Positions 2-47,149 of a stretch of 64,000 nt of DNA are shown here, piece by piece. Each line of letters opens with the position of its first letter. The stretch's first letter is position 1. A program made the position numbers and the translations under genes. Origin of the DNA: Chlorokybus atmophyticus (Eukaryota; Plantae; Mesostigma and Chlorokybus algae). The notes below the pieces were generated by a model, which did not search any database, was not told where the DNA came from, and was given only the letters and a program-made list of their open reading frames with translations. The DNA lies in contig RHPI01000260.1 of the NCBI GenBank assembly GCA_009103225.1, positions 382,203 to 446,202 on the forward strand, given 5' to 3'.

Positions 2-3000
2 CCAACCACCACCTTTGAACCCAGCCCGTTGGACACGTATCGAGACCGCCGAGACGCCATCCAGCAGCGAATCGCCGACGCAGCCGACCTGCCTTTGGGC
101 ACTGATGAAGCACTCGGACCTCCTACAACCGCTCGTCTTCATCAGCGCTACCACGCACTGGAACAAGCATATCATTGGCGACAGGATCAAACTGCCGCCA
201 TTGCTGCACGTGAACAAGCTCTTGAAGCTACACGTGCACCAATACCTCAGTCACCAACTGCTGGTCCATCCTCCAGCACCACTCCGCTCTTCGTCGGGAC
301 CAACTCTGACCAAGCGAGGGCGTTGGCTCAACAAACCAGGGGGGTGATCGCCCCGTTGCTGCCTGCGCTGGTGGAAGATCTACCAAAGGACCAAAGGGAG
401 CCAGGGAGGGGCTACCTTACACCACAAGGGTGTACACAAAGAGATGGAGTAGGACTGGTTGGAGAGCAACAACTACGCACTGCTCTGCTGCGACAAGCAA
501 CCATGCTGCATCGGCAAGAAGGCATCGGACTGCGGCAGATGCTTGGGATGCCAGACAGTGGCAACGCGGCACGCGCACGGTTAGTGACGTGGCTGGTTAC
601 CAACCATCCCGCAGTCCCGTTGTTCGCTTTCGGCGCGAGAATAGCGTGGGTGGACGCATTCCTTCGCTCCATACGGCAAGCCTATGATGAAGTGGCTTCC
701 GCCGCCACTGACACTCTGGAGGGAGCTCTGGAGGCGATACTGAGTTTGCCAGGGGTGGAGGCAAGACGTCAGCGCAGACGCATCGCCACTGCTTACGAGC
801 AGCATGTCCAACAGCCAGAGACCCAGCTCACTGTACGCACACGAGCAATAACAGTGCTGGAAGTGGGAGTGGTCAACGGCAGATGGGATGCTTACATGGC
901 AGGGATCCTCAGGGTGCCCACCATCACCCACGACATGAGAGCGCGGCTCCTACGCGCAGTGTACCTGCAGCCCATGCCTCAGAACCATCGCTATATAGAT
1001 GCGGACAACAATGCGACGGCGACATGGGAAGGTACACTAGTCAGAGAGGCAGCCCATGCTGTGCGATGGACCTATGCAGAGGAGCAGGCTGCACGAGAGG
1101 CAGTCCCGCAAACACCAGGTCCTCCAGGGTTCCCGCCACAGCCACTGGCCACTCCTCCTGGCATGACAACAGCTGCACAGAGGGTCAACCCTCCTGCACC
1201 TCCACTTGGACAGGTTGCAGCAGCACCTCCAGTGCCTAGGCCACCGCGCGTGTACCAGCAACCGCGACAAGGACGGTTTGGACAAAGCCGAGGACAAGGA
1301 GGCCCACAAGATCCATCAGGCAGAGGAGCCCTGGCTGCCCTACGGTCAGGCCCCGCAGATGAGAATAAAGCAACAGTCTCTCCACGCAAGAGGTTCCGTC
1401 GCTTCAAGAGGCTGCGCATCAACGCCAATGCAGCCATGATCGCCAACCAAGGCAAGCATGTGACCGTCAATGGGCGGGCACCCAAACGCGTGATGCTGGA
1501 CACTGGAGCACAGCCTGTCATCATTGGGCGCTACCTCGCACGAGATCTCGGCATCACCAGCGCTGAGCTGCTTCCCTGTCCCTATCAGCTGGACACCGCA
1601 ACCGGCAACCGTGACAAGGTACTCGGCCTTACCAAGCAGGCTGTGAGCATCCGCCTCACCGGACTAAACCCTTCCCACAGCACCGAGATTGTACAAAGGT
1701 GTGTGGTCACCGATGCCGGGTCCTTTGACCTACTGTTGGGACAGGACTGCAACTTCCCTGTCGGCATGGGGCTGGACTGCTGGACTGAGCAGGCATGGTT
1801 TCGACCACATTGGGATGAGGACGATGGAGAGGAGCAGGGATTCCTACCTCTCGAACTGGTGGCCAAGGACCGCTCGCAACGAAGATCGGCTGCAGCAGCC
1901 ACCTACAGTCTTACAAAAAGCTCACGTGTGCCTCGTGCCCGAACGCAGCCGAGGACAACTGCAACGAGCTCGAGCCCGAGCCTAAACGCTGAAGAGGACT
2001 CCCCTACACCGTACGATGAGTCTCAGGAGACTGTCACCAAAGAAGTGGCCTTTCAGGAGCCATCCGAGCGTCGCTGGAGCGCACAAGTAGCAGCACACAT
2101 GCTGCTGACCAGGCCTCAGCTCACTGCACACTTCCCTGCCTACAAAGACCAGGCTACAGTGCAGGAGCAGTACCACATAGCTACGGGAGTTGTGGAGTTC
2201 CACATGTTCCGCCGACAACAAGGCATCACCGTGCTGGAGCTGTTCGGAGGCATAGGCAGTGGGCTTGCGGCTGTCCTCAACACAGGAACAACAGTCACCA
2301 AGTACCTCTACTGTGACCCTGACCCTCATGCACAGGAGGCTCTGAGCCATCATTTACGACAGCTGCACCAGCGCTACCCGCAGCAGCTACCACTGTCGGC
2401 ACTGCAAGGGAGCCAGAAGGCTCTACCGCAGGACATCCGCTGGATTACCAAGGATCACCTGCAGGCAGTCGGCAACATTGACCTGCTGATAGCAGGGTGG
2501 GAGTGTCAAGGGCACTCCAGGGCAGGCAGAGGCCAAGGGCTCTCGGATCCTCGCTCACAGCTGTTCTGGGAGCTAATGAGAGTCATCAAACTCCTACAGA
2601 TCAGTCAGATCGCTAGGCCCTTGGGGTACATCATCGAGAATGTGCACTCCGAGGATGACAAGCGGCACCACGTCGCCAAGGCCTATCGGCAAGTATGCTC
2701 CTTGCTGGGGCATCCTCTCAAAATCAACGCCGCGCGTCATGGATCTCGTGCACACCGCGTCCGCGCCAAGTGGACCAACCTGGCCATTGTGGAAGACCTG
2801 TTTCTGGCAGAGTACCTATACAGCAATCGGCCACGAAATCTCGTCGTCGATGACATCCTGGACCCTGGACGCACAGCGCAACCAGTCACACGCCTTGACC
2901 ACCACCACTTCTACCAGTGCAACCAGCCTGGTCAGCCGCGCCGCGCGCTACCCACACTAGTATCCTATCCAGGCTCCTACGCGTTCCGCAATGCAGGCGA

Positions 3001-6000
3001 CGGCATGGTGTTGGACTCCAACACTGGACAGCTGGAAGAACCCAATGCCCGCGAGCGCGAGCGTGCTATGGGATTCTTTCCAAGCAGCATCACAGGCTCC
3101 ACGCTAACAACCAGTCAACAATGTCAGTTGTTGGGGCGCGCCATGGATCAGAACAGCATGGTGTGGTACTTGGAAATGTGCTTTGCTCTCCAGGATCGCC
3201 ATGTGTCCTTCCAGGAGCTCGAACACCTGGCTGGGGGGTGGATTGCTCGCTTTTCAGAGACCAAAGCAGCACACACCGCCCTCGAGACCGCCCACATGGA
3301 GGAGCAGGCAGCAGTTACTGTGGAAGACATTCCAGTGGTCGCCAACGCTACCTCATGGTCCCACGCCATTGGACCGCTGGCCACAGGCCAGACTCGAGAG
3401 CAACTCGAGGCTCTCCTCAACAAGTGGAGGAGCCAATTCAGTTTCAGTGTGAAGGAGCTGGGCATCTGCTCAGCATACCAGATGGACATTGAACTAGTGG
3501 ACACCGAACCGGTGTTCAGAAGACAGTACCGCCTCTCCAAGCTAGAAGAAGACTTGGTGGAACAGAGGTGCAAGGCGCTGCTAGATGCAGGCCTGATCGA
3601 GGAGTCCACATCGGACTTTGCGGCCGCGACCGTCATGCCCCTGAAGAAAGATTCAGCTGGCAACTGGACAGACCGGCGCATGTGTGGCGACTATCGCCCC
3701 CTCAACAACAAGACCAAGCAGGACAGGTATCCAATGCCTACCGCAGAAGGCATCTTTGACGATGTAGGAGACTGCACGGTCTTTAGTATCCTGGATATGC
3801 GCCAAGGGTACAACCAGATCGCCATCAAGGAGGAGGACAAGCACAAGACTTCCTTCTGGGGAAACCGGCAGCTGTACCAGTGGAAGGTCATGCCCTTCGG
3901 ACTGAAGAACGCTCCGGCCAAGTTCCAGCGCGTCATGGACAAAGCCCTCAAGGGGTTGGACTTCGCGCGCTGCTACATCGACGACATCCTCATCTTCAGT
4001 CACAGCAATGAGGAGCATCTCCAGCACATCGAAGAGGTGCTACAGAGGCTGAAGGAAGTCGGGATGACGGTGCACCCTGACAAGTGCACCTTCTTCACCC
4101 ACAAGGTACCCTACCTAGGACACATGATTGTGCCCCATGGTGTGTACGTACAGCAGGCCAAAGTGGAGGCACTGGTGGCTATCCCTGCCCCCACAGACCT
4201 CACGCGGCTGCGGGCCTTCCTCGGCCTTGCCAACTATTACCGCCGGTTTGTCAAGGACTTTGCCAAGATCGCAAGGCCTCTCAACGAACTACTGAAGAAG
4301 GACACCGAGTTCTTGTGGAAGGAGGCACAACAGGAGGCCTTTCAGGAGCTGAAGCTCCGCCTCACCACAGCTCCCATTCTGCAACGCCCTGACTACACCA
4401 GGTCGTTCATCCTGCACACAGACTGGAGCAAGCTCGGCATGGGGGCCGTGCTCGTACAGCATGACAACAACAAGAAGGAGCGCGTAGTGTCGTACGCCAG
4501 CCGCAGCAACAACAGTGCTGAGGCCAACTACAGCAGCTACGAAGGGGAGTGTCTCGCCGCAGTGTGGGCCATCTCCTTCTTCCGACCCTTTCTGTTTGGA
4601 CGGCAGTTTCAACTGGTCACTGACCATCAACCCCTCAAGTGGTTAATGAACAACCAGCACCTAACAGGAAAGTTAGCACGATGGGCGTTGCTGCTCCAGG
4701 AGTACGAATTCGAGGTAGAACACCGCGCAGGCCTTGCCAACCAGGATGCGGATGGCCTCAGCCGTAACCCCCACCTCAGCACCAACGACGCCACAGGCGC
4801 CCGACATGAGTTGGGTCCTACAGCTGCACCTGCAGGTGTGGCCACCATGTTCGCTGTCGCTGCGCTACGCTCAGGACGCAGGACTCAGATCGCTGAGGCA
4901 GCAGCAGACGGGGACATGCCCGCTCTCGAGCCCGCCATCACCAGCACCGATCCTTTATCAGAAGAAGCAATCGCTGCCGACCCTGAGGTGGATGACGAGG
5001 AGCTGGCACCCACCGACACACGACAAGACATCTGGCTGGACGAGCCATCGCTCGCACTGCTTCGGACTGGAAAACTTCCAGTAGGCATGAGCGCACGCGA
5101 GAAGGACCGCGTCCGGCAACGCACTCAGCGTTACGGCTGGGCCAACGACAGGCTGTATCGACGGATACAAGATGCAGATCAGGAGGTCCCCACACCAGCT
5201 GCACGTGAAGGCATCATCTCCTCCCTTCACACCGAGCTCGGGCACTTCGGTGTCAAGCGCACGGTCAGCCTGGTCAGGACCCGGTACTGGTGGTATGGGG
5301 TGCACAGACAGGTGCGGGAGTTCGTCAGCAACTGTCAGCAGTGTGACATGGTTCGCGCCAGCCTCAACACGCGCAATGCCACCTTGCATCCCCTTCCCAT
5401 CTCCGGGTTGTTCTACCGCTGGGGACTGGACATCCTTGGAGACCTAGCGCCCTCAGCGCGAGGCAACCGCTACATCCTCGTCATGATCGAGCACTTCTCC
5501 AAGTGGGTGGAGCTGGTGCCCCTGCCCGACAAGAGCAGTGAGGGAGTAGCCCAGGCTTTCCTCTCCCATGTACTCGGACGCTTCGGCAGCTGCGCTGAAG
5601 TCATCACCGACCAGGGTACGGAGTTCAGAGGAGCCTTCGACAAGCTTATCGACAGATGCTTCATCGACCACCGTCGCACCTCACGCGACCACCCGCAGGC
5701 CGACGGCCTCGCCGAGCGTACCGTGCAGACCATCAAGAAGGCACTGCGCAAGTACGTCCTCGCCTACGAGAAGAATACCTGGGATGATCACCTCCCATGG
5801 GTAGCAATGGGCTACCGGCTGTCCAAGCAGGCAGCCCTGCGAGAGTACAGCCCATACTATCTACTGTTCGGAAGGCAGCCATTGCTCCCTTTCCGCGCAC
5901 AGCAGGAGGTCGACAGAGTGGTGGACAATCTCGACAACCCCGACGAGATGTTGTATGATCTGACAGTGCGCAGTGCGCTGTTCGAACACACAGTCCCCAT

Positions 6001-6490
6001 GGCCTTCAACAACCTGCGCATCGCGCAGCACCGCGACACGCTGCGTTACGAGCGTGTGCGCAGTGGTTTCTACAAGGAGCGGGAGCGCCGCTTCGAGTCA
6101 GGAGACTTCGTCTACCGTATGGCGTCTACACGCGACACCCTCGATACCTCCGTCGGGCGTGCTGTCTACAAGGTATTGAAGGTGCACCCCACAGGGGTAC
6201 TGGACCTGTTGGGACAACGAGGCGAGCGCATGAAGGACAACATGGTCAACTGTGCGCCCTGTCATCTCCCCTACATTGCTGGCTTCACCAAGATCCAGCA
6301 CCCGCGTCCGCTGCGCAGCACCCGATGCGAGAAGTGTGGCAGCGCCGACGACGACCCATTGATGATGTTATGCGACGGCTGTAATCAAGGCATGCACTGC
6401 TACTGCCTTGACCCTCCACTGGACGCAGTACCCTTGTGGGAGTACTGGTGCGATGACTGCCGCATCAACGGTCCCCCACACAGTCGGTAG
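2..6490 (+). CDS. Gag-Pol polyprotein, >2153 aa, uninterrupted; frame is open from base 2, so the true start is upstream
   Basis: Protease VMLDTGA (DTG at 1499-1507). RT PFGLKNAPAKFQR and YIDD (3974-3985). RNase H LHTDWSKLGMGAVL...TDHQPL. Integrase H-x4-H...CQQC zinc finger and D,D,E core (WGLDILG, ITDQGTEF, GLAERTV). Stop TAG at 6488-6490. Confidence 0.96.
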   Translation, partial: PTTTFEPSPLDTYRDRRDAIQQRIADAADLPLGTDEALGPPTTARLHQRYHALEQAYHWRQDQTAAIAAREQALEATRAPIPQSPTAGPSSSTTPLFVGTNSDQARALAQQTRGVIAPLLPALVEDLPKDQREPGRGYLTPQGCTQRDGVGLVGEQQLRTALLRQATMLHRQEGIGLRQMLGMPDSGNAARARLVTWLVTNHPAVPLFAFGARIAWVDAFLRSIRQAYDEVASAATDTLEGALEAILSLPGVEARRQRRRIATAYEQHVQQPETQLTVRTRAITVLEVGVVNGRWDAYMAGILRVPTITHDMRARLLRAVYLQPMPQNHRYIDADNNATATWEGTLVREAAHAVRWTYAEEQAAREAVPQTPGPPGFPPQPLATPPGMTTAAQRVNPPAPPLGQVAAAPPVPRPPRVYQQPRQGRFGQSRGQGGPQDPSGRGALAALRSGPADENKATVSPRKRFRRFKRLRINANAAMIANQGKHVTVNGRAPKRVMLDTGAQPVIIGRYLARDLGITSAELLPCPYQLDTATGNRDKVLGLTKQAVSIRLTGLNPSHSTEIVQRCVVTDAGSFDLLLGQDCNFPVGMGLDCWTEQAWFRPHWDEDDGEEQGFLPLELVAKDRSQRRSAAAATYSLTKSSRVPRARTQPRTTATSSSPSLNAEEDSPTPYDESQETVTKEVAFQEPSERRWSAQVAAHMLLTRPQLTAHFPAYKDQATVQEQYHIATGVVEFHMFRRQQGITVLELFGGIGSGLAAVLNTGTTVTKYLYCDPDPHAQEALSHHLRQLHQRYPQQLPLSALQGSQKALPQDIRWITKDHLQAVGNIDLLIAGWECQGHSRAGRGQGLSDPRSQLFWELMRVIKLLQISQIARPLGYIIENVHSEDDKRHHVAKAYRQVCSLLGHPLKINAARHGSRAHRVRAKWTNLAIVEDLFLAEYLYSNRPRNLVVDDILDPGRTAQPVTRLDHHHFYQCNQPGQPRRALPTLVSYPGSYAFRNAGDGMVLDSNTGQLEEPNARERERAMGFFPSSITGSTLTTSQQCQLLGRAMDQNSMVWYLEMCFALQDRHVSFQELEHLAGGWIARFSETKAAHTALETAHMEEQAAVTVEDIPVVANATSWSHAIGPLATGQTREQLEALLNKWRSQFSFSVKELGICSAYQMDIELVDTEPVFRRQYRLSKLEEDLVEQRCKALLDAGLIEESTSDFAAATVMPLKKDSAGNWTDRRMCGDYRPLNNKTKQDRYPMPTAEGIFDDVGDCTVFSILDMRQGYNQIAIKEEDKHKTSFWGNRQLYQWKVMPFGLKNAPAKFQRVMDKALKGLDFARCYIDDILIFSHSNEEHLQHIEEVLQRLKEVGMTVHPDKCTFFTHKVPYLGHMIVPHGVYVQQAKVEALVAIPAPTDLTRLRAFLGLANYYRRFVKDFAKIARPLNELLKKDTEFLWKEAQQEAFQELKLRLTTAPILQRPDYTRSFILHTDWSKLGMGAVLVQHDNNKKERVVSYASRSNNSAEANYSSYEGECLAAVWAISFFRPFLFGRQFQLVTDHQPLKWLMNNQHLTGKLARWALLLQEYEFEVEHRAGLANQDADGLSRNPHLSTNDATGARHELGPTAAPAGVATMFAVAALRSGRRTQIAEAAADGDMPALEPAITSTDPLSEEAIAADPEVDDEELAPTDTRQDIWLDEPSLALLRTGKLPVGMSAREKDRVRQRTQRYGWANDRLYRRIQDADQEVPTPAAREGIISSLHTELGHFGVKRTVSLVRTRYWWYGVHRQVREFVSNCQQCDMVRASLNTRNATLHPLPISGLFYRWGLDILGDLAPSARGNRYILVMIEHFSKWVELVPLPDKSSEGVAQAFLSHVLGRFGSCAEVITDQGTEFRGAFDKLIDRCFIDHRRTSRDHPQADGLAERTVQTIKKALRKYVLAYEKNTWDDHLPWVAMGYRLSKQAALREYSPYYLLFGRQPLLPFRAQQEVDRVVDNLDNPDEMLYDLTVRSALFEHTVPMAFNNLRIAQHRDTLRYERVRSGFYKERERRFESGDFVYRMASTRDTLDTSVGRAVYKVLKVHPTGVLDLLGQRGERMKDNMVNCAPCHLPYIAGFTKIQHPRPLRSTRCEKCGSADDDPLMMLCDGCNQGMHCYCLDPPLDAVPLWEYWCDDCRINGPPHSR
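2225..3170 (+). other. C5-cytosine DNA methyltransferase domain within the polyprotein
   Basis: Motif I VLELFGGIG (2231-2257). Motif IV AGWECQGHS with the catalytic Cys at 2504-2506 (EC rather than PC). Motif VI IIENV (2636-2644). Motif VIII-like AHRVRAKWTN. Motif IX/X-like ERERAMGF...QLLGRAM. Confidence 0.93.
6323..6462 (+). other. PHD finger (C4-H-C3) at the integrase C-terminus
   Basis: CEKCGSADDDPLMMLCDGCNQGMHCYCLDPPLDAVPLWEYWCDDC. Confidence 0.93.
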
Positions 6491-6541
6491 GAACTGAGTT
6501 CTGGAGCAGAGGGCTACCCCAGAATCTCAGGGGGGGTGGCT

Positions 6542-6843
6542 TGTTGACTGTGTGCACTACGACACAGTCTGTACACAAAGGTGGCGAGCGGCATCGGCTC
6601 GTCCACTGCACTAAACACCGCGTAGGCTCATCTTCAAGCCTATGCCCACGATTGGGGGGTTGTCTTTTGCTTGCATGACTCCAATGCAGTGCCCAGCACT
6701 AGCATGCGTGCAGCACTAGCACTCCTCTGCAGCCTGTCCGAGACAAGGTTGCCCTCGACCATGACAGGCACGACAGCCAGCACGCTACTGGGTTCCAATG
6801 CCTGAGCCCACCAAAGTATTCAACTCCACCATTCTGTTGAACA
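6542..6843 (+). repeat. 3' LTR of the DNMT-Gypsy (about 300 bp; right boundary approximate)
   Basis: Starts TGTTG right after the PPT. Candidate end ...TGTTGAACA gives TGTT/AACA termini. The partner LTR is not in the window, so the end cannot be confirmed. Confidence 0.65.
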
Positions 6844-7936: not shown

Positions 7937-8696
7937 GTTGCCACAGCAAGACACAACAACAGCAACAACAACGACCAGCCCTTGTGCTGGTCGTTGTTGT
8001 TGTTGCCACAGCAAGACACAACAACAACCACAACAACAACAACAACGACCAGCACAAGGGCTGGTCGTTATTGTTGCCACAGCAAGACACACCAACAACA
8101 ATAACAATCGCAACAACAACGACTAGCACAAGTGCTGGTTGTTGTTGTTGTTGCTACAGCAAGACACGACGACAACAACAACAACAGCAACAACAACCAC
8201 CAGCCCTTGTGCTGGTCGTTGTTGTTGTTGCCACAGCAAGACACAACAACAACCACAACAACAACAACAACGACCAGCATAAGGTCTGGTCGTTGTTGTT
8301 GCCACAGCAAGACACACCAACAACAACAACAACAGCAACAATAACCACCAGCACAAGTGCTGGTTGTTGTTGTTGTTGCTACAGCAAGACACGACGACAA
8401 CAACAACAACAGCAACAACAACCACCAGCACTTGTGCTGGTCGTTGTTGTTGTTGCCACAGCAAGACACAACAACAACAACAACAACAACAAGCACGGAC
8501 GCTTGTTGTTGTTGCCACCGCAAGACACAACAACAACAACAAGCGCTAAGTGTTGCAACAGCAAGACACAACAACAACAACAACAACAACCAGCACTTGT
8601 GCTGGTTGTTGTTGTTGTTGCCACAGCAAGACACAGCAACAACAACAAGAGCTTGTGCTTGTTGTTGTGGTTGTGGCAACACTTAGCAAGCAACAG
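7937..8696. repeat. Tandem array of about 11 palindromic units (CAA)n-GACCAGC-core-GCTGGTC-(GTT)n separated by CCACAGCAAGACAC, with a 3-unit (about 225 bp) higher-order period
   Basis: GCAAGACAC recurs about 11 times. Unit variants repeat at about 8007/8233, 8079/8304 and 8155/8380. Confidence 0.92.
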
Positions 8697-10874: not shown

Positions 10875-11723
10875 TGTCATGCCGAAAGGGCTGGCAAAAG
10901 TCACTCTCATGTTCCTTACTTATGTGGTAAGAAGAACTAAGTGAGGATCCCGTATAGTCAAGTTGTGTAGTACTTTGCATATGTGCTCATGAAGTTAGTT
11001 CTTGTGCACTTAATGTGCAAGGGCGTTGTAGCTACACATAGGCACTGTCTACTAGCAAGCACAGAGCTGGTTGGTGTCATATGTCCGCATGTATACATAT
11101 GGTTGCATATGCATGCATGTGTCCGCATATGAGTTCATATGTGCGGATATGAGTGATGTATGCATGTGTATGCATATGTCCGCATATGTATGCATATGTA
11201 TGAGGTCCTAGACTGATGTGACCAGCCTTGGGCGTTCACAATGTCCGAGGCTGATGTGTGATCAGTCTTGGGCGTTGACAAGATGTCCTAGGGCTGATGT
11301 GGCAGCTCCTAGGCATGAGTATAGGTCAACGTTGCCATGACAAGGCAAGTAGCCTTGGACATGGTTGTTCTAGGTCGGAGAGCAGCAAAGAGGGGTTATA
11401 TGAACGGCCTCAACAAGTGTTGAGGCAGCTCAGCATGTGCATACTCGACTCTTGTGTGTGGGGTGCCTAGTTCAGTTGTTCAAGGGGCTCTCCCTCTCAT
11501 CGCAAGTGGGGTGTAGTGTTCGTAGCAGCCTTGCACGTGAGTAAGGTGTGCTTGAGTGTGTGTGAGCTGAGTGGAGGGTTTGTTGTGCATCCTCTCCATC
11601 CCGTTGCGGTGCTGGTCATTCCTTCAACAAGGTGCTGCACCGTGGTATGTTGTGAAGAAGTTCTTGTGCGTGTGCACAAGTATGTGACATACACGAGCAG
11701 GTAAGTGTGTGTCCCACGTTACA
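10875..11723 (+). repeat. 5' LTR of chromovirus A (849 bp)
   Basis: Near-identical to 17249-18103; hand count gives about 15 substitutions and 2 indels totalling 6 bp. Confidence 0.95.
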
Positions 11724-12039
11724 TTGGACTCGGAGCTTGTTTTCAAGCCTTGCATGCTTGCCCATCAGCTTGTACACTTGCTACACGGTGCGTGTGTTGC
11801 ATTCTTTGCTTGCACGCGCTACATGGCAGTGTTTGCATGCTGATTGTGCATGTAGTTGGTTGCACCAGCTGCACGCACACTTGCATGCACGGTGTGGGTT
11901 GTATTCACACTGATTTGCGAACTAGTTGTGTGCATTTTCGCTGCGTTTTGCTGCGTGCACAGCTGGACTTGTGCGCGCGTGTGTGTGTTGAACACTACAC
12001 TCATTACGTGCTTGTGCACGAGCAGATTTTCCTTCGACA

Positions 12040-15000
12040 GTGACTGATCCGAATGCCAACACACTCGCGGCCCAAGTGATGGAGCTGCAAAACCAGGTGC
12101 AAGCCATGGTCACAGCCAATGCCTCCATGAAGGAGCAACACGAGCAGCAGCTACCCAAGATGGCAGCCGCAAAAACCCACAAGATGATGCCACGCTTGGA
12201 GTTCTTCTCCGGTGCCCATGATGGGAAGGGCAAGGATCTTGGTGTTGCCGTGCGTGACTAGCTTTCTGGTTGTAAGCATGTGTTGCATGCCGCTGACATA
12301 TTGCCTGGGCTTGAGGCCAAAGCAGTGTCGCTTTTGGCATCCTACTTGCGGGGAAGTGCTGCCCGCATGTGGGAAGGGGCTTCCCCACGTCTTGAGGCTG
12401 CTGGCAAGGATGTCGCAAGCCTTGACGTGTTTGAGACTGCTATGTCGTAGGCCTACGGGGGTGTAAACCCATCACAGAAGGCGCGTGACAAGTTGAGACG
12501 CTTGAAAGTCAAGCCCAATCAGTCCATTGAGGACTTCACTGTCTACTTCGAGACGGTGTGTGCCGAAGTTGGCCCCGACATGCCCTTATCAGAGGCAGAG
12601 AAGATGGACAAGTACTGGGCGGCTTTGCCTGAGGATACGGCAAAGCAATTGACCTTCAAGGAGGGCCTGGAGTCTTTCACACATGCTGACCATGACTTGA
12701 TAAAGCGCACGGCTGTGCAGTATGACAACAGCCAGCGCATGATCAACCAGACACGGAAGTTGTCCATTGTTGCCAACCAGCCCTCGAGCTCGACCACTCC
12801 CGCTGTGGGAAGTGGCAATGGCAACAACAGTCGCAAGCGCGGCCGCCCGGACGGCAAGGGCAAGCAGCCCTTTCAGCCAGTCAACAAGCAGCGCGCTACC
12901 AGCATCCCCGGAGTCAGCGTGGAGCTGAGGAATGCATGCTTTAAAGCCGGACTTTGTCTCAAGTGCGGGGAGAAAGGCCACCGCAAACTGCCCCAACCCC
13001 TCCAACGACAAGCCTGTCGCATAGGAACTCGGGGTGAAGAGTTGTTCTACTAGTAGCCCTGTTGCCAACTCTGTAAGTTGCTTGATGACTGTTGGCAATC
13101 CACATGCTTCCCTGTTGACATGCGATGTTGCTGTGAGGGAAAATGATGTGGGTGTGCCTGTTGACTCCGAATTTCTGATGCATGACTGTGTGAGCAAGCA
13201 AGTGCTGCTCAATGCGCCCTTTGACAAGTTGTCAATGGTGCTCAAGCACTATGTTGAGTGCAAGAGCAAGAGTCCGCATAACACAAGTGCATGTGTCATT
13301 GTGCCCGCGTATAGAGGACCATGGTCGTCTTTTACAAAGGGTATGCAAGTCATTCAAGAGATTGACAAGTCACAAACTGGCATAGGGTGCTAAGTGCGTG
13401 TCATGTATGACCCGCCTGTTCTCCACCGGGGAATCACTTGGACCTTACATGGTTGTTCAAGGCGTCAGTTGCACGCATACCAGCTACTCTGATGATAGAT
13501 ACTGGTACACCGGAGAACTTTGTAAGTGAGTCTCTGGTGCGGCGTCTTGGCATTCATGTTGAGAAGGCAAGTGAGGCAGTGACCTCACTTAATGAGCATG
13601 AGATCCCAGTCAAAGGGTCAGTGCAGCTGTCTTTGCGTGTGCAAGGCTATCATGCTCAACTGAGGTTCTTGGTTGTGCCAGTTGAAGTACCAGGTACGCT
13701 ACCAGGTACGCTACCAGGCACGCTTGCTGGGAGCGTGCTAATGGCCTGCGCACAGATGCAGACACTGGCCTTTGCAAAGTGCACAAAGGGCGAGGGCGTG
13801 TGACCCTGAGAGCTGAAGGGTGTGATGTCATGCCCGCTACTCACGGTGACACATCAAGTGATGTGTTCCCTCTGTTGTTGAGTGCCATGCAGGTGAAAAG
13901 AGCTGTGCGGAGAGGTGCTTAACCTCTTCTGGTCCTCGTCAAGCCACTTGCCAACGATGAGGGCACCACTCCACCCGGTGAGACTGTTAGCAGCTCACAG
14001 GACAATGCACTTGACGCTCTGCTGCATGAGTATTCTGATGTGTCTCAAGCTGACTTGCCTGAGTTGCCTCGTGAGCGGGAAGTGTGGCACACTATCCCTC
14101 TCGTATTAGGAGGACAACCCATTTAGGCCTGTGTATAGGCTAAGTCCAGCTGAGTTTGCGGACATGGAGAGGCAAATCAAGGCCTTGCTTGCGAAGGGAT
14201 TGATTGAGCCAAGTAGCTCTCCTTTTGGAGCACCCATTCTGTTCGTACCTAAGAAGGACGGTAGGCTGCGCATGTGCGTGGACTATAGGGCCTTGAACAA
14301 GCTTACCATTAAGAATGGGTATCCGTTGCCAAGGATAGATGATTTGCTTGATCAACTGAGCGAGGCCTCGGCGTTCAGCTCCATGGACTTGATCAGTGGG
14401 TACCACCAGATGCCGATCACACCGGAAGATGTGCCCAAGACAGCGTTTAGAACGCCTGTGGGACACTTTCAGTATAAAGTGCTGCCATTTGGGCTGTTGA
14501 ATGCGCCAGCTACCTTTCAAGCTATGATGAACCGTGTATTTCACAAGATGTTTGGGAAGACAGTACTTGTGTACTTGGATGACATCATGGTCTGTAAAGA
14601 CCCTGAGTCACATGTTACACATGTGCGTGAGGTTCTTGAAACGCTGCGTGCGAACAAGTTCTTTGCGTACATGCCCAAGTGTGAGTTTGGGAAGACGGAA
14701 CTTGAGTTCTTGGGGCACATTGTAAGCAAGGAGGGCGTGCACCCTGACCCCAAGAAGGTTGCTAAGGTCCAAGAATGGCCCGCACCCAAGAACGTGCATG
14801 AGCTGCGAGCATTCTTGGGGCTAAGCAACTATTTCCGGAAGTACATCCTTGGATACTCATTGCGAGTTGCTCCTCTCACAAACTTGCTACGTGACAAGGT
14901 TGTGTGGAGGTGGGGACACGGGCACCAGGTTGCCTTTGACTCTATCAACGAGGCTCTGGTGACAGCACCTGTGTTACAGTTGCGAGACTTCACCAGGCCC

Positions 15001-17000
15001 TTGGAGGTGATTAGCGATGCATCTCTAGATGGCACGCGAGCTGTGTTGCTTCAAGACGGACACCCTCTTGCGTACTTGAGCAAGAAGTTCTCTCCTGCTG
15101 AGAGAACCAATACCACAACTGAGCAAGAGTTGTTGGGAGTGGTCCATGCACTGCAAAAGTGGCGCTGCTATCTGGAGGGGGTGGAAGGTGGGTTCACGGT
15201 GATTACTGATCACAACCCACTTGTTTTCTTTCAGATCCAACCAACCCTGTCCCGAAGACAAGCAAGGTGGGCTAAGTTTTTGTTGCGTTTCAACTTTACT
15301 TGGGTATATTGTTCAGGTAGGTTGAATGTGGCAGATCCCTTGAGTCGCTCGCCTTTGTTATTGGCAGCAACAACACGTGCACGTGCACGCAGTCAAGGGT
15401 GGGCACAGTCTGATGACACAGGTGCTGGTACATCAACGCAGCCAGCAACATGTGAGTTGCCAGTTGCAAGTGAGGCAGCCAGCGGTGATGCACCAATGGT
15501 AGCTTCCAATGCAAGTGGGGAGGACCCACTGGCTGTTGATATTGAAGACATTGTGGCACGTCTACTATGGGCTTATGCACTTGACAACTGGTTTGCCGAG
15601 CTGCTCAAGCAAGGAGACGACAAGATCACTTGTCACAAAGGGTTGTGGTACCGCGAGGGCAAGTTGATTGTGCCAAATGCACTCGGACTTAGGCAAGAAT
15701 GCTTGTTTGAGGCACACGATGCTGTATACAGCGGTCACATGGGCATGACCAAGACCATCAACTTACTGCAGCGACAGTACTGGTGGCCGACATGGGTTGC
15801 TGATGCAACCAAGTATGTGCAAAGTTGTGACACTTGTCAACGTGACAAGGTCTCACACCGCAAGTCAGCAGGGCTACTTAAGCCGTTGGCTATCCCAAGC
15901 TATCAATGGGAGAGTGTGAGCATGGATCTGATCACAGATCTGCCCGAGACAAAACAAGGGCATAATGCCATCATTGTCTTTGTTTATCGGTTGACCAAGA
16001 TGGTCCGGTTTGAGCCATGTCGCACAGATGTGAGCGCGCAAGAGTTTGCGTATGCTTTTGTGAACACGGTGTTCAAACTGCACGATGTACCCAAAGAGTT
16101 GGTATCAGACCGTGATCCCAGGTCTACCAGTCAGTTCTGGCAGGCTGTGTGCCAATACTTGGGAACCAACCAGAGCTTGAGCACTGCTTACCATCCACAG
16201 AGTGATGGACAGACGAAGCGTGCAAACCAGGTGCTTGAAGACGTGCTGCGCCACTACACGTCACCCAAGTTTGATGACTGGGATGTGCATCTTGCATTGG
16301 CCGAGTTTGCTGTAAATCATGCATGGCAAGAGTCAATGCACAGCACTCCGTTCTTTCTCAACTATGGTCGTCATCCGTTGACACCAATGTCTCTGCAAGT
16401 TCAGCCATTTAGCAAAGTGCCAACGGCTAGAGACTTTACAAAGCACATGCATGCTGCATTGGCAAGTGCCAAGGACTGCTTGAGAGCAGCCCAAGATTGG
16501 CAAAAAATGTATGCTGATCGGCAGCGCAAGCCTGGTGCAGGTCTCAAAGTAGGAGACAAGGTCTTGCTGAGTTAAGAACATTGCTAAGAACATTAGACTC
16601 AAGACTAGTGGTGTGCGCAAGCTTCCACCGAGGTGGCTAGGGCCGTTCACAATCACAGCAGCTGTTGGTGGCCGTGCCTTTAGGCTTGAATTGCCAAAGA
16701 GCATGCGAATCCACAGTGTGTTCCATGAGGCACTGTTGAAGCCATACAGAAGTGATGGCCCGGTGCAACCTCCTCCACCTCCATATGCATGTGAGGTAGA
16801 GGGAGACCTCGAGTATGAGGTTGAGGCAGTTGTTGGCAAGAGGTTCCGGAAGTACAAGAAGACCTTCCGCACTGAATAATGTCAAGTGGCTTGGTTATGG
16901 CAAAGAGCATAACACCTGGGAGCCTATTTCCAACTTAACAAACTGTGCTGACAAGTTGGGTGAGTTTGAGAGTGAGCTCAAATCCACAGGTGCCACTTGA
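12040..17000 (+). pseudogene. gag-pol of chromovirus A (Gag, CCHC, Dam-like domain, PR, RT, RH, INT, chromodomain) with stops and frameshifts
   Basis: Gag LRRLKVKPNQSIEDF. Zinc knuckle CLKCGEKGH (frameshifted). PR MIDTG (13498). RT YLDD. RNase H ISDAS...TDHNPL. INT HDAVYSGH...CDTC and SMDLI...SDRD. Chromodomain EYEVEAVV...VKWLGYGKEHNTWEP. Confidence 0.93.
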
Positions 17001-17248
17001 GAGCATGTGCTCGGGTTGCAACATAGGTGTTGTACAAACACGTGCAACTTTCTCTTCTATGTGACATGCCAATACGCGCGCACTGGTACTTAGTATCAGA
17101 GTTGATTGTCACTCCCGCGACTTGCATTTTGTTTTACGCGTAGTGTGCGGTGGTTTAGCAGGCTTGGCCAACCTGGCTGGCAATCATTGTGCGGGGCAAT
17201 GAGCTCCATTATTTGCAACATGGGAGTTGCAATGCAAGTGGGGAGGAA

Positions 17249-18103
17249 TGTCACGCCTAAAGGGCTGGCAAAAGTCACTCTCATGTTCCTTACTTATGTG
17301 GTAAGTAAGAAGAACTAAGTGAGGATCCCATATAGTCAAGTTGTGTAGTACTTGGCATATGTGCTCATGAAGTTAGTTCTTGTGCACTTAGTGTGCAAGG
17401 GCGTTGTAGCTACACATAGGCACTGTCTACTAGCAAGCACAGAGCTGGTCGTCGTCATATGTCCGCATGTATATGCATATGGTTGCATATGCATGCATGT
17501 GTCCGCATATGAGTTCATATGTGCGGATATGAGTGATGTATGCATGTGTATGCATATGTCCGCATATGTATGCATATGTATGAGGTCCTAGACTGATGTG
17601 ACCAGCCTTGGGCGTTCACAATGTCCGAGGCTGATGTGTGATCAGTCTTGGGCGTTGACAAGATGTCCTAGGGCTGATGTGGCAGCTCCTAGGCATGAGT
17701 ATAGGTCAACGCAGCCATGACAAGGCAAGTAGCCTTGGACATGGTTGTTCTAGGTCGAAGAGCAGCAAAGAGGGGGTATATGAACGGCCTCAACAAGTGT
17801 TGAGGCAGCTCAGCATGTGCATACTCGACTCTTGTGTGTGGGGTGCCTAGTTCAGTTGTTCAAGGGGCTCTCCCTCTCATCCCAAGTGGGGTGTAGTGTC
17901 CGTAGCAGCCTTGCACGTGAGTAGGGTGTGCTTGAGTGTGTGTGAGCTGAGTGGAGGGTTTGTTGTGCATCCTCTCCATCCCGTTGCGGTGCTGGTCATT
18001 CCTTCAACAAGGTGCTGCACCGTGGTATGTTGTGAAGAAGTTCTTGTGCGTGTGCACAAGTATGTGACATACACGAGCAGGTAAGTGTGTGTCCCACGTT
18101 ACA
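17249..18103 (+). repeat. 3' LTR of chromovirus A (855 bp)
   Basis: Direct repeat of 10875-11723, preceded by the PPT and followed by the TSD. Confidence 0.95.
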
Positions 18104-19710
18104 TAGGTGCTCGCATCGTCCCGAGTCTCCGTTTGCTGACGCCGATCCTTCAGACACGAACGCAAGCATTTAATGATGTCCCCTCTTCGCCCTCATCACA
18201 CGTGTTGCCACTGCAAGGCCATGTCTCTGCAACCAGACATGCTGGCCAGGCCACCGTACGACCCTGCAAAAGCATTGATACTCAATAAAGTTGCACGATC
18301 AGGTGTATGTTCAGCGCTGCACAAACTTACTATGATGGTTTCACGCAGCTTGATCGTGGTAAGGCCAAGGGATCCTGCGCACAATCAACTCGATCACCGA
18401 TTACAAAACCAACGCAATGCATTAGTAATTACAAATGATGTCGCCAATGCTCTCGCAACATGTCTTCGGTTGAAGGTTCCGGTGATAATGGAGTCGGTAG
18501 CACAACGCTGACTCCAGCCTCGGAGTTTACCATGGTAAACTCGGATCCCAAACCGTTGGTGGTCCAAAATTTGCGTCGGGGGTGGTGCTGGCCGCCGCTT
18601 GCAGCCGCCCACCACTCGCGCTTCTCTCTTCTTCTTTCATTGTTCATATTTGCGCTGATCCTTAAACTTCCCTTTTCCTCGACTCCCGGTGTTGCACATG
18701 TCTTTGATGTGCTCCTTGATGTACTTTGCCACAACGCATGTTAGAGTTAACACCAATGACTTGGCATAAAAAGAACAGCTTTATGCAGCACAAAAAAAAG
18801 TAGACAAAGACAAACCCTGCACAGCATTGAAGGTGTCCAAAGCCCACAGCATAATTGTAACTGAACTGACAAATGTTGACAAGAGCAAGTACACAGGACT
18901 TTAGACTGTAGACTTAAACGGACAGGACAGTACTTGAACCCACACTCTCACTTGTTGGCTAGCTCAGGCTGTGCCCATTGCTCTGCAGTGGTGTGTGCTC
19001 GTCCAAAACCTCAGCGATTGCCGCGTTGCGTCGTTGCATGTCCTCGTCCTGACGCATGCGAAGGTCCACATTCAACAACTTCGCGTTTTGGGGGAAGTGC
19101 TCCGCTATCTTTGTCTTCAGCAGCTAGATGTTGTGCAATTGCGTGTAGTACTGTGCTGGGTAATGTTTCTGCAGCAAAGTTTTCCCTAATGGTTCGTCCT
19201 TCTCTCTTCTGACTCTGAAACACTTGACCTCCAAAAGACCCTTCTCCTAAGCTGCAGTCTCTCCCGTGTTTGACTCGCCTCTGTTACCATCAGCGCTTGC
19301 ACAGATAGCAAGTGCAAAACATAAACATCTATGGCTAGACTTTTAGAATCAAGGCTGGACTGCTACAAGGAATCAAAAGACCAATCGTTCTGAGAGTTTA
19401 AAAGCATGTAACATTGTCAACTTGCACAATGCTAACTTAGTCTTGTGCTTGGAGCTGCTTGGTGACACTTATGCACATCGTCGATTATGAGGGTTGCGAG
19501 ACAAAGGGTGGGACGCAGCATTCGAATGACGCTCATATTGAGCTTGATATAATATTTACCATCAAGTTTTTGAAGTTGTAATTGTTCAACGACAGTCTGT
19601 GCATGTTTGCTCTTACCACAATTTCTGCTCACACAATTAGCTATCCCTGCAACACCAAGCTGGCGACTGCTCCATACTCATTCAATGCCATGCTTGAAGC
19701 TACACATCTT

Positions 19711-37358: not shown

Positions 37359-37884
37359 TGTAACGGGAGCAATAATTATAGGGGTATTATTGCTACCTAA
37401 ATAACACATTTTGTATGAATAAGTATTTAAATATGCTTATTTATACCTCTTTTCTACGGTTCCTCGCTTATTAAAGGCTATGATGCTTTATCATAGCTTA
37501 AATAAGTCCCAATGGGTGTAGAATCGCTTATTCAAGCCTATTTAGTGTCACATTTGATATAATGTGATCACTATCTCGTTAAGTACCTTACGATAGGTAT
37601 CTTTGGATAGGTACCTTATCGATGGGTACCTTATCTGAGCTGTGATTGGCTCACGCTAGATTTCCTAACTACTCTATCTGTAGGGTCGATGTCTAGTTGT
37701 GAGTTAATTATCGAGAGGTATATAGTTGATATACTCTTGATATAAAAGGTCACATCAATCTGATGTGGGGACTTTCAGTTCTCTGCTCAGTGGCGGCCAC
37801 GCCGTTGAAAGGCTTGTCATAGGCGGTGTGGGTGTTGGGGTAGAGGATTGAAGGGGCATCACCGGCGACGGTGGTGCTGTTACA
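37359..37884 (+). repeat. 5' LTR of chromovirus B
   Basis: Hand count gives about 12 substitutions and no indels versus 47150-47675. Confidence 0.95.
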
Positions 37885-38118
37885 TTGGTATCCAGGAGCT
37901 ATGGGGTGACGTGGGTACTTATAGGGGGCGGCGACATGCTTTCGGCCAATCAGAAGGCGTCGGCGGCGGCCTCCTATTCGTCCAGGCAGCCCAAGCTTCA
38001 AGTTCGCTTCCCTGCGCTACCTCCACGTTGAAGCCACCTATCAAAGAGGCAGCCTCTCCACGTGTCCCTTACCATCACACACGTCGGTGACTTGCCTGCT
38101 TGCCAGGTGCTTGCCAGG

Positions 38119-41100
38119 TAGGCCTGGTCGCTTCCGTAGACGGAAGTACCTTCCGGAAGGTGCGACTTCCGAGAAATTCCGGAAGCAGGGCTAAAGGGCT
38201 GCTTTCGTCATCAAACCTTCCGGCACCTTCCGTTCGTTCTGTGGAAGTCCGGTTCGTCAGCGACGGAACCTTCCGTCCGCTAAATCAATCAACTCGTGTT
38301 TAGGGTTGTCGCAGCAAGACTCTGCCTTGGCGCCAGAAACGACCAGGGAGGCCACGGCGTGGACGCTGGCGGCGGCGGCGGTGATGGCGGGGGAGCCGCC
38401 GTCAGCAGGCGAAGGAGCATCATGCTCTGTCAATAGTGCTGCTGTTCGTACACTAGATGGGGCAAGGGCTGTGACTAGCACCATGCGCATAGAGCGCAAG
38501 CTTAAACAGGCTACTAGTCAGCGTGCCTGGACGCTTGATAAGATGAGGCAAGAGTATAGCAGGCTAGAAACCATGCGCAATGCATCTGTGCAGTCCAACC
38601 ATGTGACCTTCTGGTCGTTTCTTAAGCCTGTGCTAGTGTGTGCCACAGAGGTTGTAGATGATGATGTCAAAGGGATTGGCCTGTTGTGTGTGTGCGGCGA
38701 TGTGCACTTCAACGTTTCCAACCCTTCAAAGGTGGCGCTAGATCACTTGAAAGCTCCTGGTGTCTGCAGCGGCATTACTGAACAAGAGAGAGACGCTTTG
38801 GTAAGAGGCATGCACAGCAGGTACTCTGCATTGTCATTGTGGGGATGTGTGCACATGTGTCGTGTTATGCTGCTGCTGTCGCTTGTCATGCTGTGCATTA
38901 TCATCTGCCAAGCGCATGCAACAAAAACATTGCATCTCATGATGTGTGCAATGTGTGCGCGAAGTCTTGTGCATGAAGGGCGTTTAATGCACAGCATGTT
39001 GCAGTTGAAGAAGAAGTCAAGGACTAATGGGCAAACGCTGTTCCTTGGAGGTGGAGAAGCAGATCGGGTGGCATGGGAGCAGCATCAGTCAGACGCAATC
39101 TGCTACAGGTGGTATTAGTGCAGATGGCAAGCGCAAGGCAGAGCAAATGACCATGAAGAGCTACACACCAAGCGCGGTAGCAATTGCAAAGGCCACGAAG
39201 TGCTTTTGCAGGTGGATATATCGCAATTGTGGTTCAATCCCTATATCTGCAGTGCAACACACAGACTTTAGAGAAGGACTCAAAGCGTTAGGGCATCCGG
39301 GTTTACGTCGCCATACTGTAGCTGGCCCATTGTTGAATAGCATGCATGATGAGGTGCAGGCAGAGATCAAGGTCTCTCTTAACAACCTGCAGGTAGCGCT
39401 CAACGTATTGATATGCTGTATACATGTAAGTTATAATGGCTGACTGCTTTGGCTGCAGTGCATGCAGATTGCTCTTGATGGGTTGAAGAAAAAAAATGTC
39501 AACGAGGGAAAGAAGATTATCAACTACCTAGTGAACTTACCAGATGGAGGGGCCATGTTCTTCAAGTCAATGCCAACTGATGGCATCACTAGTGTCAACG
39601 GCCCTTATCTGCTGAACGAGTGCAAGCAGGTGTGTACACTAGTATCATTCATGCTGTTACATGCATGATTGCTGCAAGTAGTCTTCTTGATTGTTGATTG
39701 CTACAGATCTTTGAGATGATAACTGGAGGCAATGACAAGTCTGCATTTTCAAGCATTGCTGGTGTCATAGCTGATGGGGAAAACTTGAACAAGCTAGTGC
39801 TTCGTGAGTTGGAGCAGAGCTTTCATTGAATGGTTTGCTGCACATGTCAAGAGCATGCTCTGTCACTCTTACTTAAAGATTTTCCCAAGCATAGCGGCAT
39901 GGTGAAGGAGGTTGTGAGGAAGGCTCGTGTGGTGGCAGGGTTCTTTCGTGACAACTCCAAAGCCCGAACCATACTGCAGGTGTGAAGGGTTAGGGGTTGT
40001 GTATGTAGAATTTCCGTTGGGCTAATGCATGAGCACATGCAGATGAAGCAAAAGGAGCAATATGGCAAGACCAAAGCACTGGATGCCCCCGGATATCAGA
40101 TTTGGCTACATGGTTGAGCTGCTACAAGACTTGGTTGACTCGGCCGCAGCATTGCGACACACCGTTGTGGAGCCAGAGTTTGAGGTGGAGTACTCGTTGA
40201 CAACTGGTGCAGCCAGTCGCACCATTGTCTTGGACTCTGAGTTCTGGTCAACTGCGTCTTCCACGCTGCATCTATTGAAGCCTGTTCGCAGCCTTATAGC
40301 ACAGGTGGAAGGTGATCGGCCATTGCTCTCAACGGTGTGGAGCATGTGGCAAAGTATCATCAGCCACATCAAAGAGGTACATGCAATGTTGCAGTTTGCA
40401 TACTTGCACCGCACATGTCTCCACCTTGCATGGTATATCATGTTCACTTGTACATATGCAGTGGTGCACGGATAATGGCGTTGCATACTCCGCGATGGAA
40501 GCACTTGTTGAAGCGCTGGTCCAAGTCAGAGCATCCAGCAATTTACCTCGCGTTCCTCATTGATCCACAAACGCATGAGCGTAAAAATGGCAAGTTTGTC
40601 CCACCTTTCGCTGCATTGACCGCCAAGCAGCGCCAAGCAGCGCGTGATGTGCTGTTTAGGCTGGTCGGCGTTGCGGACAACACTGCTGCTGGTAATGCAC
40701 TGCAGCTGCAATGGATGACTTTCCTAACCACAGGACTTGATGTGGCCAGCGTTTTTGCCCTGCACTCAGTTAGTGAACAGTCCAGTGCATTTCAGACAGG
40801 CAAGGTGGCAGCCGTTGAGTTGAGGAGGATGGCTTGGTCACTAGACACGCTATACCCTGCCATGCAACAGGCAGCAGTGCGCCTCATGAGCTTGCATGGG
40901 ACTGCATGCAGCCCAGAGCGTGCCAACTCATCTTCGAGGTGGTTGTTTTGTGAGAACAGGTCAAGCTTGGCGTTTCATCGTGCAGAAAAGATGATCACAA
41001 TCCAGAGCTTTTATGCCATCAAACAGCGTGAAGGCCTTGTGGACTACGCGGCTCAGGACTCGGACTTGTTGTGCATGCCGCTACCCGAGGGTCGCGATGT

Positions 41101-47000: not shown

Positions 47001-47149
47001 AAACTGTGGGCTTGGTTTAATGACAGACTGGCAGTGCAGTTTCATTACCACCCTGTCATTTCCTGCTATCTCACTGGTAACAATTACTCGAAATCAAGCC
47101 TGATCAACTTGAGTTCAATGAGGACGTTGAAAACCCAAGTGGGGGGGAA

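Follow-up and report, generated by a model that had tools for sequence, protein, structure and literature searches.

What would a retrotransposon do with a cytosine methyltransferase of its own? The role of DNMTs borne by retrotransposons has been an open question since 2018, and it is raised here by an element found at the 5' edge of a 64,000-nucleotide stretch of Chlorokybus atmophyticus DNA, called the window below.

The element is a Ty3/Gypsy retrotransposon with a methyltransferase in its polyprotein

An ORF scan of the window revealed a stop-free frame of 2162 codons on the forward strand (positions 2 to 6490), which runs past the 5' edge of the window without a start; in run X2, one contig extends it by at least 398 nt in the 5' direction. 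According to Pfam, the domains are ordered protease, C5-methyltransferase, reverse transcriptase (RT), RNase H, integrase and PHD finger. The aspartyl protease (LDTGA, aa 487-582, positions 1460 to 1747) matched PF13650 (E 9.9e-8), the RT (YIDD, RVT_1 aa 1223-1376, positions 3668 to 4129) PF00078 (E 1e-33), the RNase H (aa 1439-1568, positions 4316 to 4705) PF17917 and PF17919, and the DDE integrase, with its H2C2 finger and core (aa 1732-1897, positions 5195 to 5692), PF17921 and PF00665, both above cut-off. The C-terminal PHD finger (PF00628, aa 2109-2153, positions 6326 to 6460) had as its best PDB matches UHRF2, KMT2C/D, BAZ2A, UHRF1, ATXR5 and KDM5B; the PHD fingers of UHRF1/2, BAZ2A and KDM5 read unmodified H3 tails.

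An initial annotation had placed a C5-methyltransferase in frame between the protease and the RT of a stop-free polyprotein of more than 2150 aa, and both the length and the Pfam order agree with this. The three domains that it named were confirmed by Pfam, but it had overlooked the PHD finger. The ORF is, however, larger than the Pol that it described, because about 480 unassigned codons, which are probably Gag, precede the protease. Gag is a putative identity given to this N-terminal region (positions 2 to 1459) by its position; codons 1-480 had neither a Pfam match nor a real PDB match, and their single-sequence model reached a pLDDT of 39.

The order protease-RT-RNase H-integrase and a DDE integrase with an H2C2 finger are those of Ty3/Gypsy elements, as is a polypurine tract (positions 6529 to 6541 with its spacer) ahead of a repeat bounded by TG...CA (positions 6542 to 6775). 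The element had been called an LTR retrotransposon, and the domain order, the polypurine tract and the 3' repeat, which lie within the window, agree with this; the 5' end lies outside it. A DIRS/PAT element with a tyrosine recombinase is ruled out by the DDE integrase, and scans of the element ORF and of 95 further ORFs in the window found no tyrosine recombinase family. Contigs covering the element were about 5-10 times as deep as the flank, a depth that does not equal copy number.

The methyltransferase domain is of the DNMT3 type

The domain spans positions 2222 to 3190, close to the 2225-3170 first proposed, and its model had a pLDDT of 93.7. The HMM search with PF00145, suggested in the initial annotation, gave 40.1 bits (E 3.9e-10) with the full ORF and 44.3 bits with the domain alone, against a curated cut-off of 22 bits. 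Each motif on which the claim of a complete enzyme had rested is present, in frame and in order: the SAM-binding motif I FGGIG (FxGxG, positions 2243 to 2257), motif IV WECQ with the catalytic Cys835 (positions 2498 to 2509, the cysteine codon at 2504-2506), motif VI ENV (positions 2636 to 2644) and motif VIII RVR (RxR, positions 2756 to 2764), and motif X was also found. The sequence GRAMD was read in the same frame at positions 3134 to 3148.

When profiles were compared, E-values were 1e-23 for DNMT3A, 9e-13 for DRM and 1e-7 for the bacterial HhaI/HaeIII. Foldseek with the predicted domain model retrieved DNMT3A (E 6.7e-19), and in the VIA structure comparison the model aligned with DNMT3B over 275 residues (Z 28.4, rmsd 2.8). 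In sequence and fold ranks the domain is thus nearer DNMT3 than DNMT1, 2, 5, DRM or bacterial enzymes, and from these ranks, the second of which uses a predicted structure, it can be placed as DNMT3-type, closest to DNMT3A/B. For a stored relative, the Atlas structure search returned DNMT3 clusters and the Atlas feature search no match. The domain shares with the catalytic domain of animal DNMT3A/3B/3C and with plant DRM the predicted fold (Z 28), motifs I-X and the AHRxRxxW-NL signature; it differs from them by an identity of about 21-24%, by additional residues that separate motif II from motif III, by GWECQ in place of GSPCN and by having no PWWP or ADD. DRM is circularly permuted, whereas here motif I lies at the domain N-terminus and the motifs are unpermuted, which rules out a DRM identity.

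We then compared 92 domains of relatives, aligned at about 35-50% identity. The catalytic cysteine is present in 88 of them, the E and N of motif VI in 90 and 91, and the two arginines of motif VIII in 91 and 88. A proline before the catalytic cysteine is typical of C5-methyltransferases and is not a catalytic residue; in the window domain it is replaced by Glu834. The earlier reading of WECQ for PCQ was therefore correct, but the substitution is not unique to this copy, since the residue is Glu in 28/92 domains and Pro in 60/92; a Marchantia domain, for instance, reads WPCQ. The two were exchanged at least five times on the domain tree, so that the position looks tolerated, and WECQ is, as judged from the alignment, a family variant.

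Selection was examined at two depths. Between related X1 and X2 copies, 29 of the 40 variant sites listed (of 216) were synonymous (25% expected), and dN/dS was 0.10-0.20 in four pairs of relatives; these substitution patterns show that the domain is under purifying selection. A dN/dS of 0.98 between two decayed sister copies counts against it. CpG loss as a footprint of self-methylation was not seen in the element, whose observed/expected ratio is 0.73 (neighbouring Gypsy elements without DNMT, 0.53 and 0.76; host exons, 0.71 and 0.93).

The element belongs to a widespread family

The window copy combines an intronless DNMT3 domain, an RT in the same ORF and a charophyte host, which a host gene also indicates to be Chlorokybus, and it is a newly added member of the Gypsy-Dnmt3 kind known from Klebsormidium since 2018. 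KnitGypsy-Dnmt3 of Klebsormidium nitens, described by de Mendoza et al. 2018 (PMC5890265), likewise has a charophyte host, an intronless unpermuted DNMT3-type domain in a Gypsy Pol ORF and purifying selection. Compared by description, the window element differs in its host and in its WECQ motif, and it has a PHD finger, a term absent from the main text of that paper; nothing on readthrough, liverworts or chlorophytes was found in the part of it consulted (PMC5890265). The class had been called rare as well as not new. The 2018 precedent for a DNMT in charophyte Gypsy Pol confirms the second point, but the first was overstated, as a protein search gave 151 related proteins (none of them named for Klebsormidium) and 72 metagenome loci were found.

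The relatives include Closterium, liverworts and a chlorophyte clade. Since the liverworts include Marchantia, which is genetically tractable, the role of the domain can be tested. A protease ahead of the domain or an RT behind it was seen in 61/152 proteins. In the chlorophyte-containing clade the methyltransferase is relocated behind RNase H and adjoins the integrase, and several relatives with the order RNase H-methyltransferase-integrase score below the Pfam cut-off. A single capture followed by relocation of the domain is fairly probable on a tree of 33 RT-RNase H rows with two distant outgroups, from which RT relatives without the domain were left out. As for the donor, the seven viral loci found were no more than 26-40% identical, over part of the domain, and L080, the sole close match when prokaryote genomes were scanned, consists of a complete Gypsy element and is probably a contaminant; both candidates were rejected, although the viral and prokaryote scans relied on a single short peptide pattern and are weak as negatives.

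DAM-LTR/EpiLTR elements are also Gypsy elements with DNA methyltransferases and chromatin readers, and one of their clades has the enzyme between RT and integrase, as in the chlorophyte-containing clade here; their enzymes are, unlike the DNMT3-type domain, an adenine methyltransferase or a DNMT4-related domain (bioRxiv 10.64898/2026.05.21.726589). The same source treats the acquisition in 'streptophytes (Gypsy-DNMT3)' as already known and distinct from these.

An in-frame stop precedes the RT in the liverwort-containing clade

Among the 37 loci having a methyltransferase-RT linker, 36 contain an in-frame stop in it. Six (L002, L005, L007, L009, L060 and L080), whose domains are down to 50% identical, have the exact context TAG-CAR-YYA, the DNA counterpart of UAG-CAR-YYA, the consensus for readthrough in TMV (PMC3159437). 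As a control, the exact CAR-YYA context followed 0/548 stops inside domains; this control covers the exact form, the relaxed CAR-YY-C having none. In the largest family, whose copies have decayed, the stop is often TAA and the CAA-CCC behind it departs from the exact consensus. Tests for an RNA stem downstream of the stop gave mixed results (z -0.5 to -3.0), with 4/9 loci beating 98% of synonymous resamples, and we propose no such stem.

It is likely, judging from this conservation, that in the liverwort-containing clade a stop of the readthrough type puts the enzyme at Gag levels; if the stop is read through, these elements would make it as a bulk particle component, and the stop position fits a putative packaging of the enzyme. 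In the window copy the linker from methyltransferase to RT is free of stops, and in L044 the stop lies ahead of the methyltransferase domain, meaning that Gag-level supply is not universal.

The terminal repeats of the relatives suggest integration of a circle

In the window, the polypurine tract (AGGGGGGG) and a 5-nt spacer (positions 6529 to 6541) are followed by repeat B (TGTTG...CACGACA, positions 6542 to 6775), then by GC and a low-depth flank, the depth falling after 6800. The identical G-run and spacer precede B in L002, L009, L037, L044 and L080, and B has the same ending in the relatives. One X1 contig departs from the window at 6777 into TGTCATG..., the letters with which repeat A of the relatives begins. 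A second B, the palindrome described below and an A start were not found within the 64-kb window; with one B repeat there, the element's own terminal layout rests on this single loose contig end.

Both complete relatives (L037 and L047) read A-coding-B-GC-A-B and are flanked by 4-bp target duplications. All 16 copies of the 5' A, in 13 different flanks, begin with TGTC, and B stands in front of none. The letters after A are complementary to A itself over 12-17 bases and differ between families, which suggests that the element RNA may prime its own reverse transcription. Priming by the transcript 5' end, not by tRNA, is likewise predicted for Tf1/Sushi and Tcn1, which in the part of the source consulted differ in having ordinary paired LTRs and no methyltransferase described (Neumann 2019, PMC6317226).

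On balance, the layout of the relatives may well arise from integration of a two-LTR circle opened at an internal palindrome. The linear DNA, with B-GC-A as its true LTR, would close into a two-LTR circle, and the integrase would open it at GACA-GC-TGTC within the 5' LTR, giving A-coding-B-GC-A-B and the 4-bp duplication. Two-LTR circles are held in textbooks to be dead ends for DDE integrases. If the layout does reflect circle integration, it would be an exception to this view, and finders demanding two matching TG...CA LTRs would mis-delimit such elements.

Similar arrangements have been described. KnitGypsy-Dnmt3 combines Gypsy domains with repeats laid out as in DIRS elements (legend of Fig. 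4c, PMC5890265), to be compared with A-coding-B-A-B in the relatives here, and the text consulted gives no repeat mechanism and does not mention target duplication or a primer-binding site. SymbioDIRS-Dnmt3 of Symbiodinium also has a DNMT3 domain in Pol and A-coding-B-A-B repeats (PMC5890265); as a DIRS element it uses a tyrosine recombinase, whereas the window element relies on a DDE integrase and target duplications of 4 bp are made by its relatives. The open literature covered yielded no paper on Gypsy-DNMT3 of Chlorokybus or of liverworts, on readthrough in Gypsy-DNMT3 elements, or on circles as the explanation of split repeats in a Gypsy element; subscription journals, like the supplement of the 2018 paper, may bear on the matter.

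Possible roles of the methyltransferase

The explanation that we favour, with moderate confidence and from sequence and modelled structure, is that the DNMT3-type domain acts on newly made DNA of its own element, which it would methylate ahead of integration or in the course of it. The protease would cut it out of the polyprotein, the particle would carry it, and it would modify the cDNA there or as integration occurs, while the PHD finger would recognise histone H3 tails and so steer the integrase. A copy bearing methylation on arrival could resemble host DNA or stay quiet from the start.

A more specific proposal, which we consider doubtful, is that this old Gypsy lineage of chlorophytes and streptophytes opens its circle at GACA-GC-TGTC and that its DNMT3 methylates the new DNA, the CAGCTG core of the palindrome included. 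Methylation might then settle at which of two identical sites the cut is made and shield the palindrome left inside each integrated copy. The link between methylation and palindrome, taken alone, is similarly doubtful.

An active enzyme could instead act mainly on host chromatin, methylating with the PHD-integrase complex the insertion site or competing elements. The resemblance of the PHD finger to those of UHRF1/2, BAZ2A and KDM5, the position next to the integrase in the chlorophyte-containing clade and the lack of CpG depletion in the element itself would all suit this role, which is unlikely given that in the liverwort-containing clade the domain stands together with Gag ahead of the stop, away from the integrase.

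Points against self-methylation of the cDNA include Glu for Pro at motif IV, no extra CpG loss, and the Klebsormidium Gypsy DNMT, which gave no methylation in yeast in an assay that its authors call inconclusive (PMC5890265). In its favour, SymbioDIRS-Dnmt3 domains performed de novo CG methylation in yeast (PMC5890265). The window copy provides an unbroken coding sequence, and the natural Glu/Pro variation of the family a further type of enzyme to assay now that the yeast test has failed. These three points, together with the relatives under the Pfam cut-off, would also be expected of a module that binds DNA or SAM and whose catalysis is slight or absent, for example one coating or shielding cDNA in the particle; this is rather improbable, as Cys, EN and RxR hardly vary among such divergent domains and the repeated Pro/Glu exchange suits a tolerated position.

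Action on packaged RNA or an RNA-DNA hybrid, not on double-stranded DNA, would account for both the negative yeast DNA assay (PMC5890265) and the absent CpG footprint, but it is very unlikely for a domain far nearer DNMT3 than DNMT2 in sequence and fold. Finally, an artefact in which part of a host DNMT is nested in a Gypsy copy, or was joined to one by misassembly, is scarcely credible in spite of the assembly gaps (651 N), as the single frame has no stops, contigs from two runs span the domain borders, and the architecture conserved among the relatives refutes it.

A DNMT3-type methyltransferase inside a Gypsy polyprotein

The element at the 5' edge of the window carries a polyprotein ORF (positions 2 to 6490) of 2162 codons with zero stops, the window beginning within the frame. 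Pfam domains in this ORF are a protease (aa 487–582), a C5 methylase (PF00145), RT, RNase H (RH), integrase (INT) and a PHD finger. The initial annotation had described a motif-complete C5-methyltransferase (MT) between protease and RT of a stop-free polyprotein, and this was borne out: the domain lies in frame at about 2222–3190, with FGGIG, WECQ (Cys835), ENV, RVR and GRAMD in the usual order, and the PF00145 search it had proposed gave 40.1 bits against a cut-off of 22. Its reading of motif IV as WECQ rather than the usual PCQ was also correct; the Glu is Glu834. The MT structure predicted from 45 sequences (pLDDT 93.7) had DNMT3A/B/C as best Foldseek matches (E 7e-19). VIA likewise placed DNMT3A/B/C on top (Z 28.4, rmsd 2.8, 275 aligned), followed by the bacterial M.MpeI (Z 26.2), and profile comparison gave 1e-23 for DNMT3A, 9e-13 for DRM and 1e-7 for HhaI/HaeIII.

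Across 92 domains, the residue before the catalytic Cys was Pro in 60, Glu in 28, Ser in 2 and a gap in 2, with at least five switches between Pro and Glu on the MT tree. The Cys itself was conserved in 88 of the 92, motif VI E in 90 and N in 91, and the Arg pair of motif VIII in 91 and 88. Judged from these sequences, the position before the Cys looks like a tolerated site rather than a sign of decay.

Contigs over the element in two sequencing runs are near-identical, accompanied by divergent subfamilies, and reach about 5–10 times the flank depth, a value that is not a copy number. Between 2392 and 3196, 29 of the 40 variants listed (from 216 sites) were synonymous, compared with an expected 25%; dN/dS was 0.10–0.20 in four pairs of relatives and 0.98 in one decayed sister pair. 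No self-methylation footprint was seen when CpG observed/expected was compared with neighbours and host exons, since the element (0.73) falls inside the range of two nearby DNMT-free Gypsy elements (0.53 and 0.76) and host exons (0.71 and 0.93). The element is a genuine, novel Gypsy-Dnmt3 member with an intact-looking coding region, and we consider, with moderate confidence, that the likeliest role of the predicted enzyme is to methylate the element's own cDNA.

This kind of element is already known from KnitGypsy-Dnmt3 of Klebsormidium, the charophyte Gypsy precedent that the initial annotation had rightly claimed; SymbioDIRS-Dnmt3 of Symbiodinium has been described as well. According to the available text of that study (de Mendoza et al. 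2018, PMC5890265), KnitGypsy-Dnmt3 has an unpermuted DNMT3 within its Gypsy Pol ORF, a Ka/Ks below 0.2 and a DIRS-like repeat layout; in yeast its domain gave no DNA methylation, a result its authors called inconclusive, and the SymbioDIRS-Dnmt3 domain did methylate. No Klebsormidium sequence was among the 46 and 105 related proteins matched in our two MT-domain searches, so kinship with the Klebsormidium elements rests on shared features. The additions beyond this precedent are a broader host range, a readthrough-type stop and circle-like ends; a literature survey, mostly at title level and with the large 2018 supplement outside its scope, returned nothing on these points except the 2018 repeat legend.

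Hosts and domain order of the relatives

The named hosts are Marchantia (13), Closterium (9), Calypogeia (3) and the chlorophyte Hariotina reticulata, plus a bacterial bin (1) that probably reflects contamination; the majority of matches are nameless. A complete Gypsy-DNMT element (L080, 1–9203) lies on a contig from a cyanobacterial bin, probably eukaryotic contamination, and P0057, a protein labelled bacterial, looks like a similar case. According to an opinion paper (PMC6338049, available part), land plants, tracheophytes for example, lack transposon methylases; the liverwort matches show that these enzymes occur in non-vascular land plants.

With the window copy counted, 61 of 152 proteins have a protease before or RT after the MT domain, 15 have the order RT-RH-MT-INT-PHD, with RNase H ahead of MT, 6 are MT-INT pieces and 70 contain MT by itself. 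In the RT-RNase H tree, the proteins with the RT-RH-MT-INT-PHD order group as one clade (support 100/99), and they are set apart in the MT tree (SH-aLRT 97), which holds the 92 of 152 rows of sufficient length. One locus, L044, retains the first order (MT before RT), yet clusters with this clade in both trees. With a root of two distant outgroups and sampling without DNMT-free close relatives, these sequences would fit a single capture followed by relocation within Pol.

The PHD finger is found with both orders. Its closest counterparts are those of UHRF2, KMT2C/D, BAZ2A, UHRF1, ATXR5 and KDM5B, several of which read unmodified H3 tails, and we infer that the finger has a part in target choice. 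In two Hariotina proteins (P0163, P0164) a Tudor-like match lies C-terminal to the finger, and P0044 has a G-patch between MT and integrase.

A stop between methyltransferase and RT

Proteins of a 49-row clade including Marchantia and Calypogeia (support 99) mostly terminate 57–170 residues past the MT domain. At the DNA level, an in-frame stop interrupts the MT-RT linker in 36 of the 37 loci having such a linker, a count that skipped 3 loci with long linkers. The exact context TAG-CAR-YYA, which matches the TMV readthrough consensus UAG-CAR-YYA (as given in the available part of PMC3159437), is found in L002, L005, L007, L009, L060 and L080, and in 0 of 548 control stops within domains; the 32 loci of a decayed family have TAG or TAA at the linker stop, followed by CAA-CCC, or differ from this by one letter. 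Because of this TMV-type context, Gag-protease-MT would be the main product in the liverwort-containing clade, and RT-integrase the readthrough product. Against the generality of this arrangement, the window copy, Closterium P0075 and some further proteins are stop-free across the linker, and L044 has its in-frame TAG ahead of the MT domain. That TAG-GGG, which lies between protease and MT of this GC-rich relative (L044 3365–3450), has a possible hairpin (z -1.4) downstream and is perhaps another readthrough site. In a Marchantia gene model (P0020), MT is joined straight to the RT side, the stop-bearing linker of its relatives being apparently spliced out.

Terminal repeats and a possible circular intermediate

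In the window, a polypurine tract (PPT) is followed by repeat B (TGTTG...CACGACA, 6542–6775, 234 nt), then by GC and low-depth flank; one contig of the X1 run continues from 6777 with TGTCATG. Relatives account for this arrangement. Two of them, L037 and L047, have the layout A1-coding-PPT-B1-(GC)-A2-(AT or GT)-B2, A and B being terminal repeat pieces numbered for their 5' and 3' copies, between 4-bp target duplications (AAGG and AATC). The 16 A1 copies, with 13 distinct flanks, always start with TGTC and never have B in front. At the B-A joint, L002, L009, L010, L020, L023, L037, L044 and L080 carry the palindrome GACA-GC-TGTC or a form of it with one letter changed; the joint of L047 has decayed.

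The letters directly 3' of A pair with a stretch inside A, about 30 nt past a TATA-like box, over 17 bases in L037, L033 and L028, 16 in L002, 12 in L080 and 10 in L010 and L047, with compensating changes between L080 and L002. Pairing was partial in L029, and none of 10 or more bases was found in L003. By analogy with Tf1 and Tcn1, for which self-priming has been predicted (PMC6317226, available part), this pairing points to self-priming in the relatives.

With such a primer site and the PPT, normal reverse transcription would yield an LTR of B-GC-A at both ends and could not place B downstream of A2. Joining the ends of the linear DNA would create CA-GT-TG as the A2-B2 joint; this joint is present in L047 and L020, and its GT is the two letters right after the PPT. 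Cutting the circle at the 5' palindrome would then give the integrated form of the relatives, and we infer such a circle-opening origin for their ends, a proposal of our own from these joints. The lone B of the window could have arisen by deletion between B1 and B2, by collapse of the assembly or by cleavage of the other palindrome.

Other features of the window

About 1.2 kb 3' of the element lies a CAA/TTG-rich tandem array with inverted pieces inside (7937–8680). Two ordinary Gypsy elements without methyltransferase (10875–18107 and 37359–47676) have paired LTRs that are 97–98% alike, and their target duplications are 5 bp long (TAGGT and TATGG); a weak hAT transposase dimerisation-domain match (40316–41143) lies within the window's third Gypsy element. 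The membrane protein encoded by a long exon (52005–54113) has thrombospondin-1 and EGF repeats, which looks odd for a streptophyte alga. The host RPAP1 gene occupies about 58700–63780, with an exon at 61197–62753 that is 99% identical to jgi/Chlat1/1447, a code that we take to denote the charophyte Chlorokybus atmophyticus.
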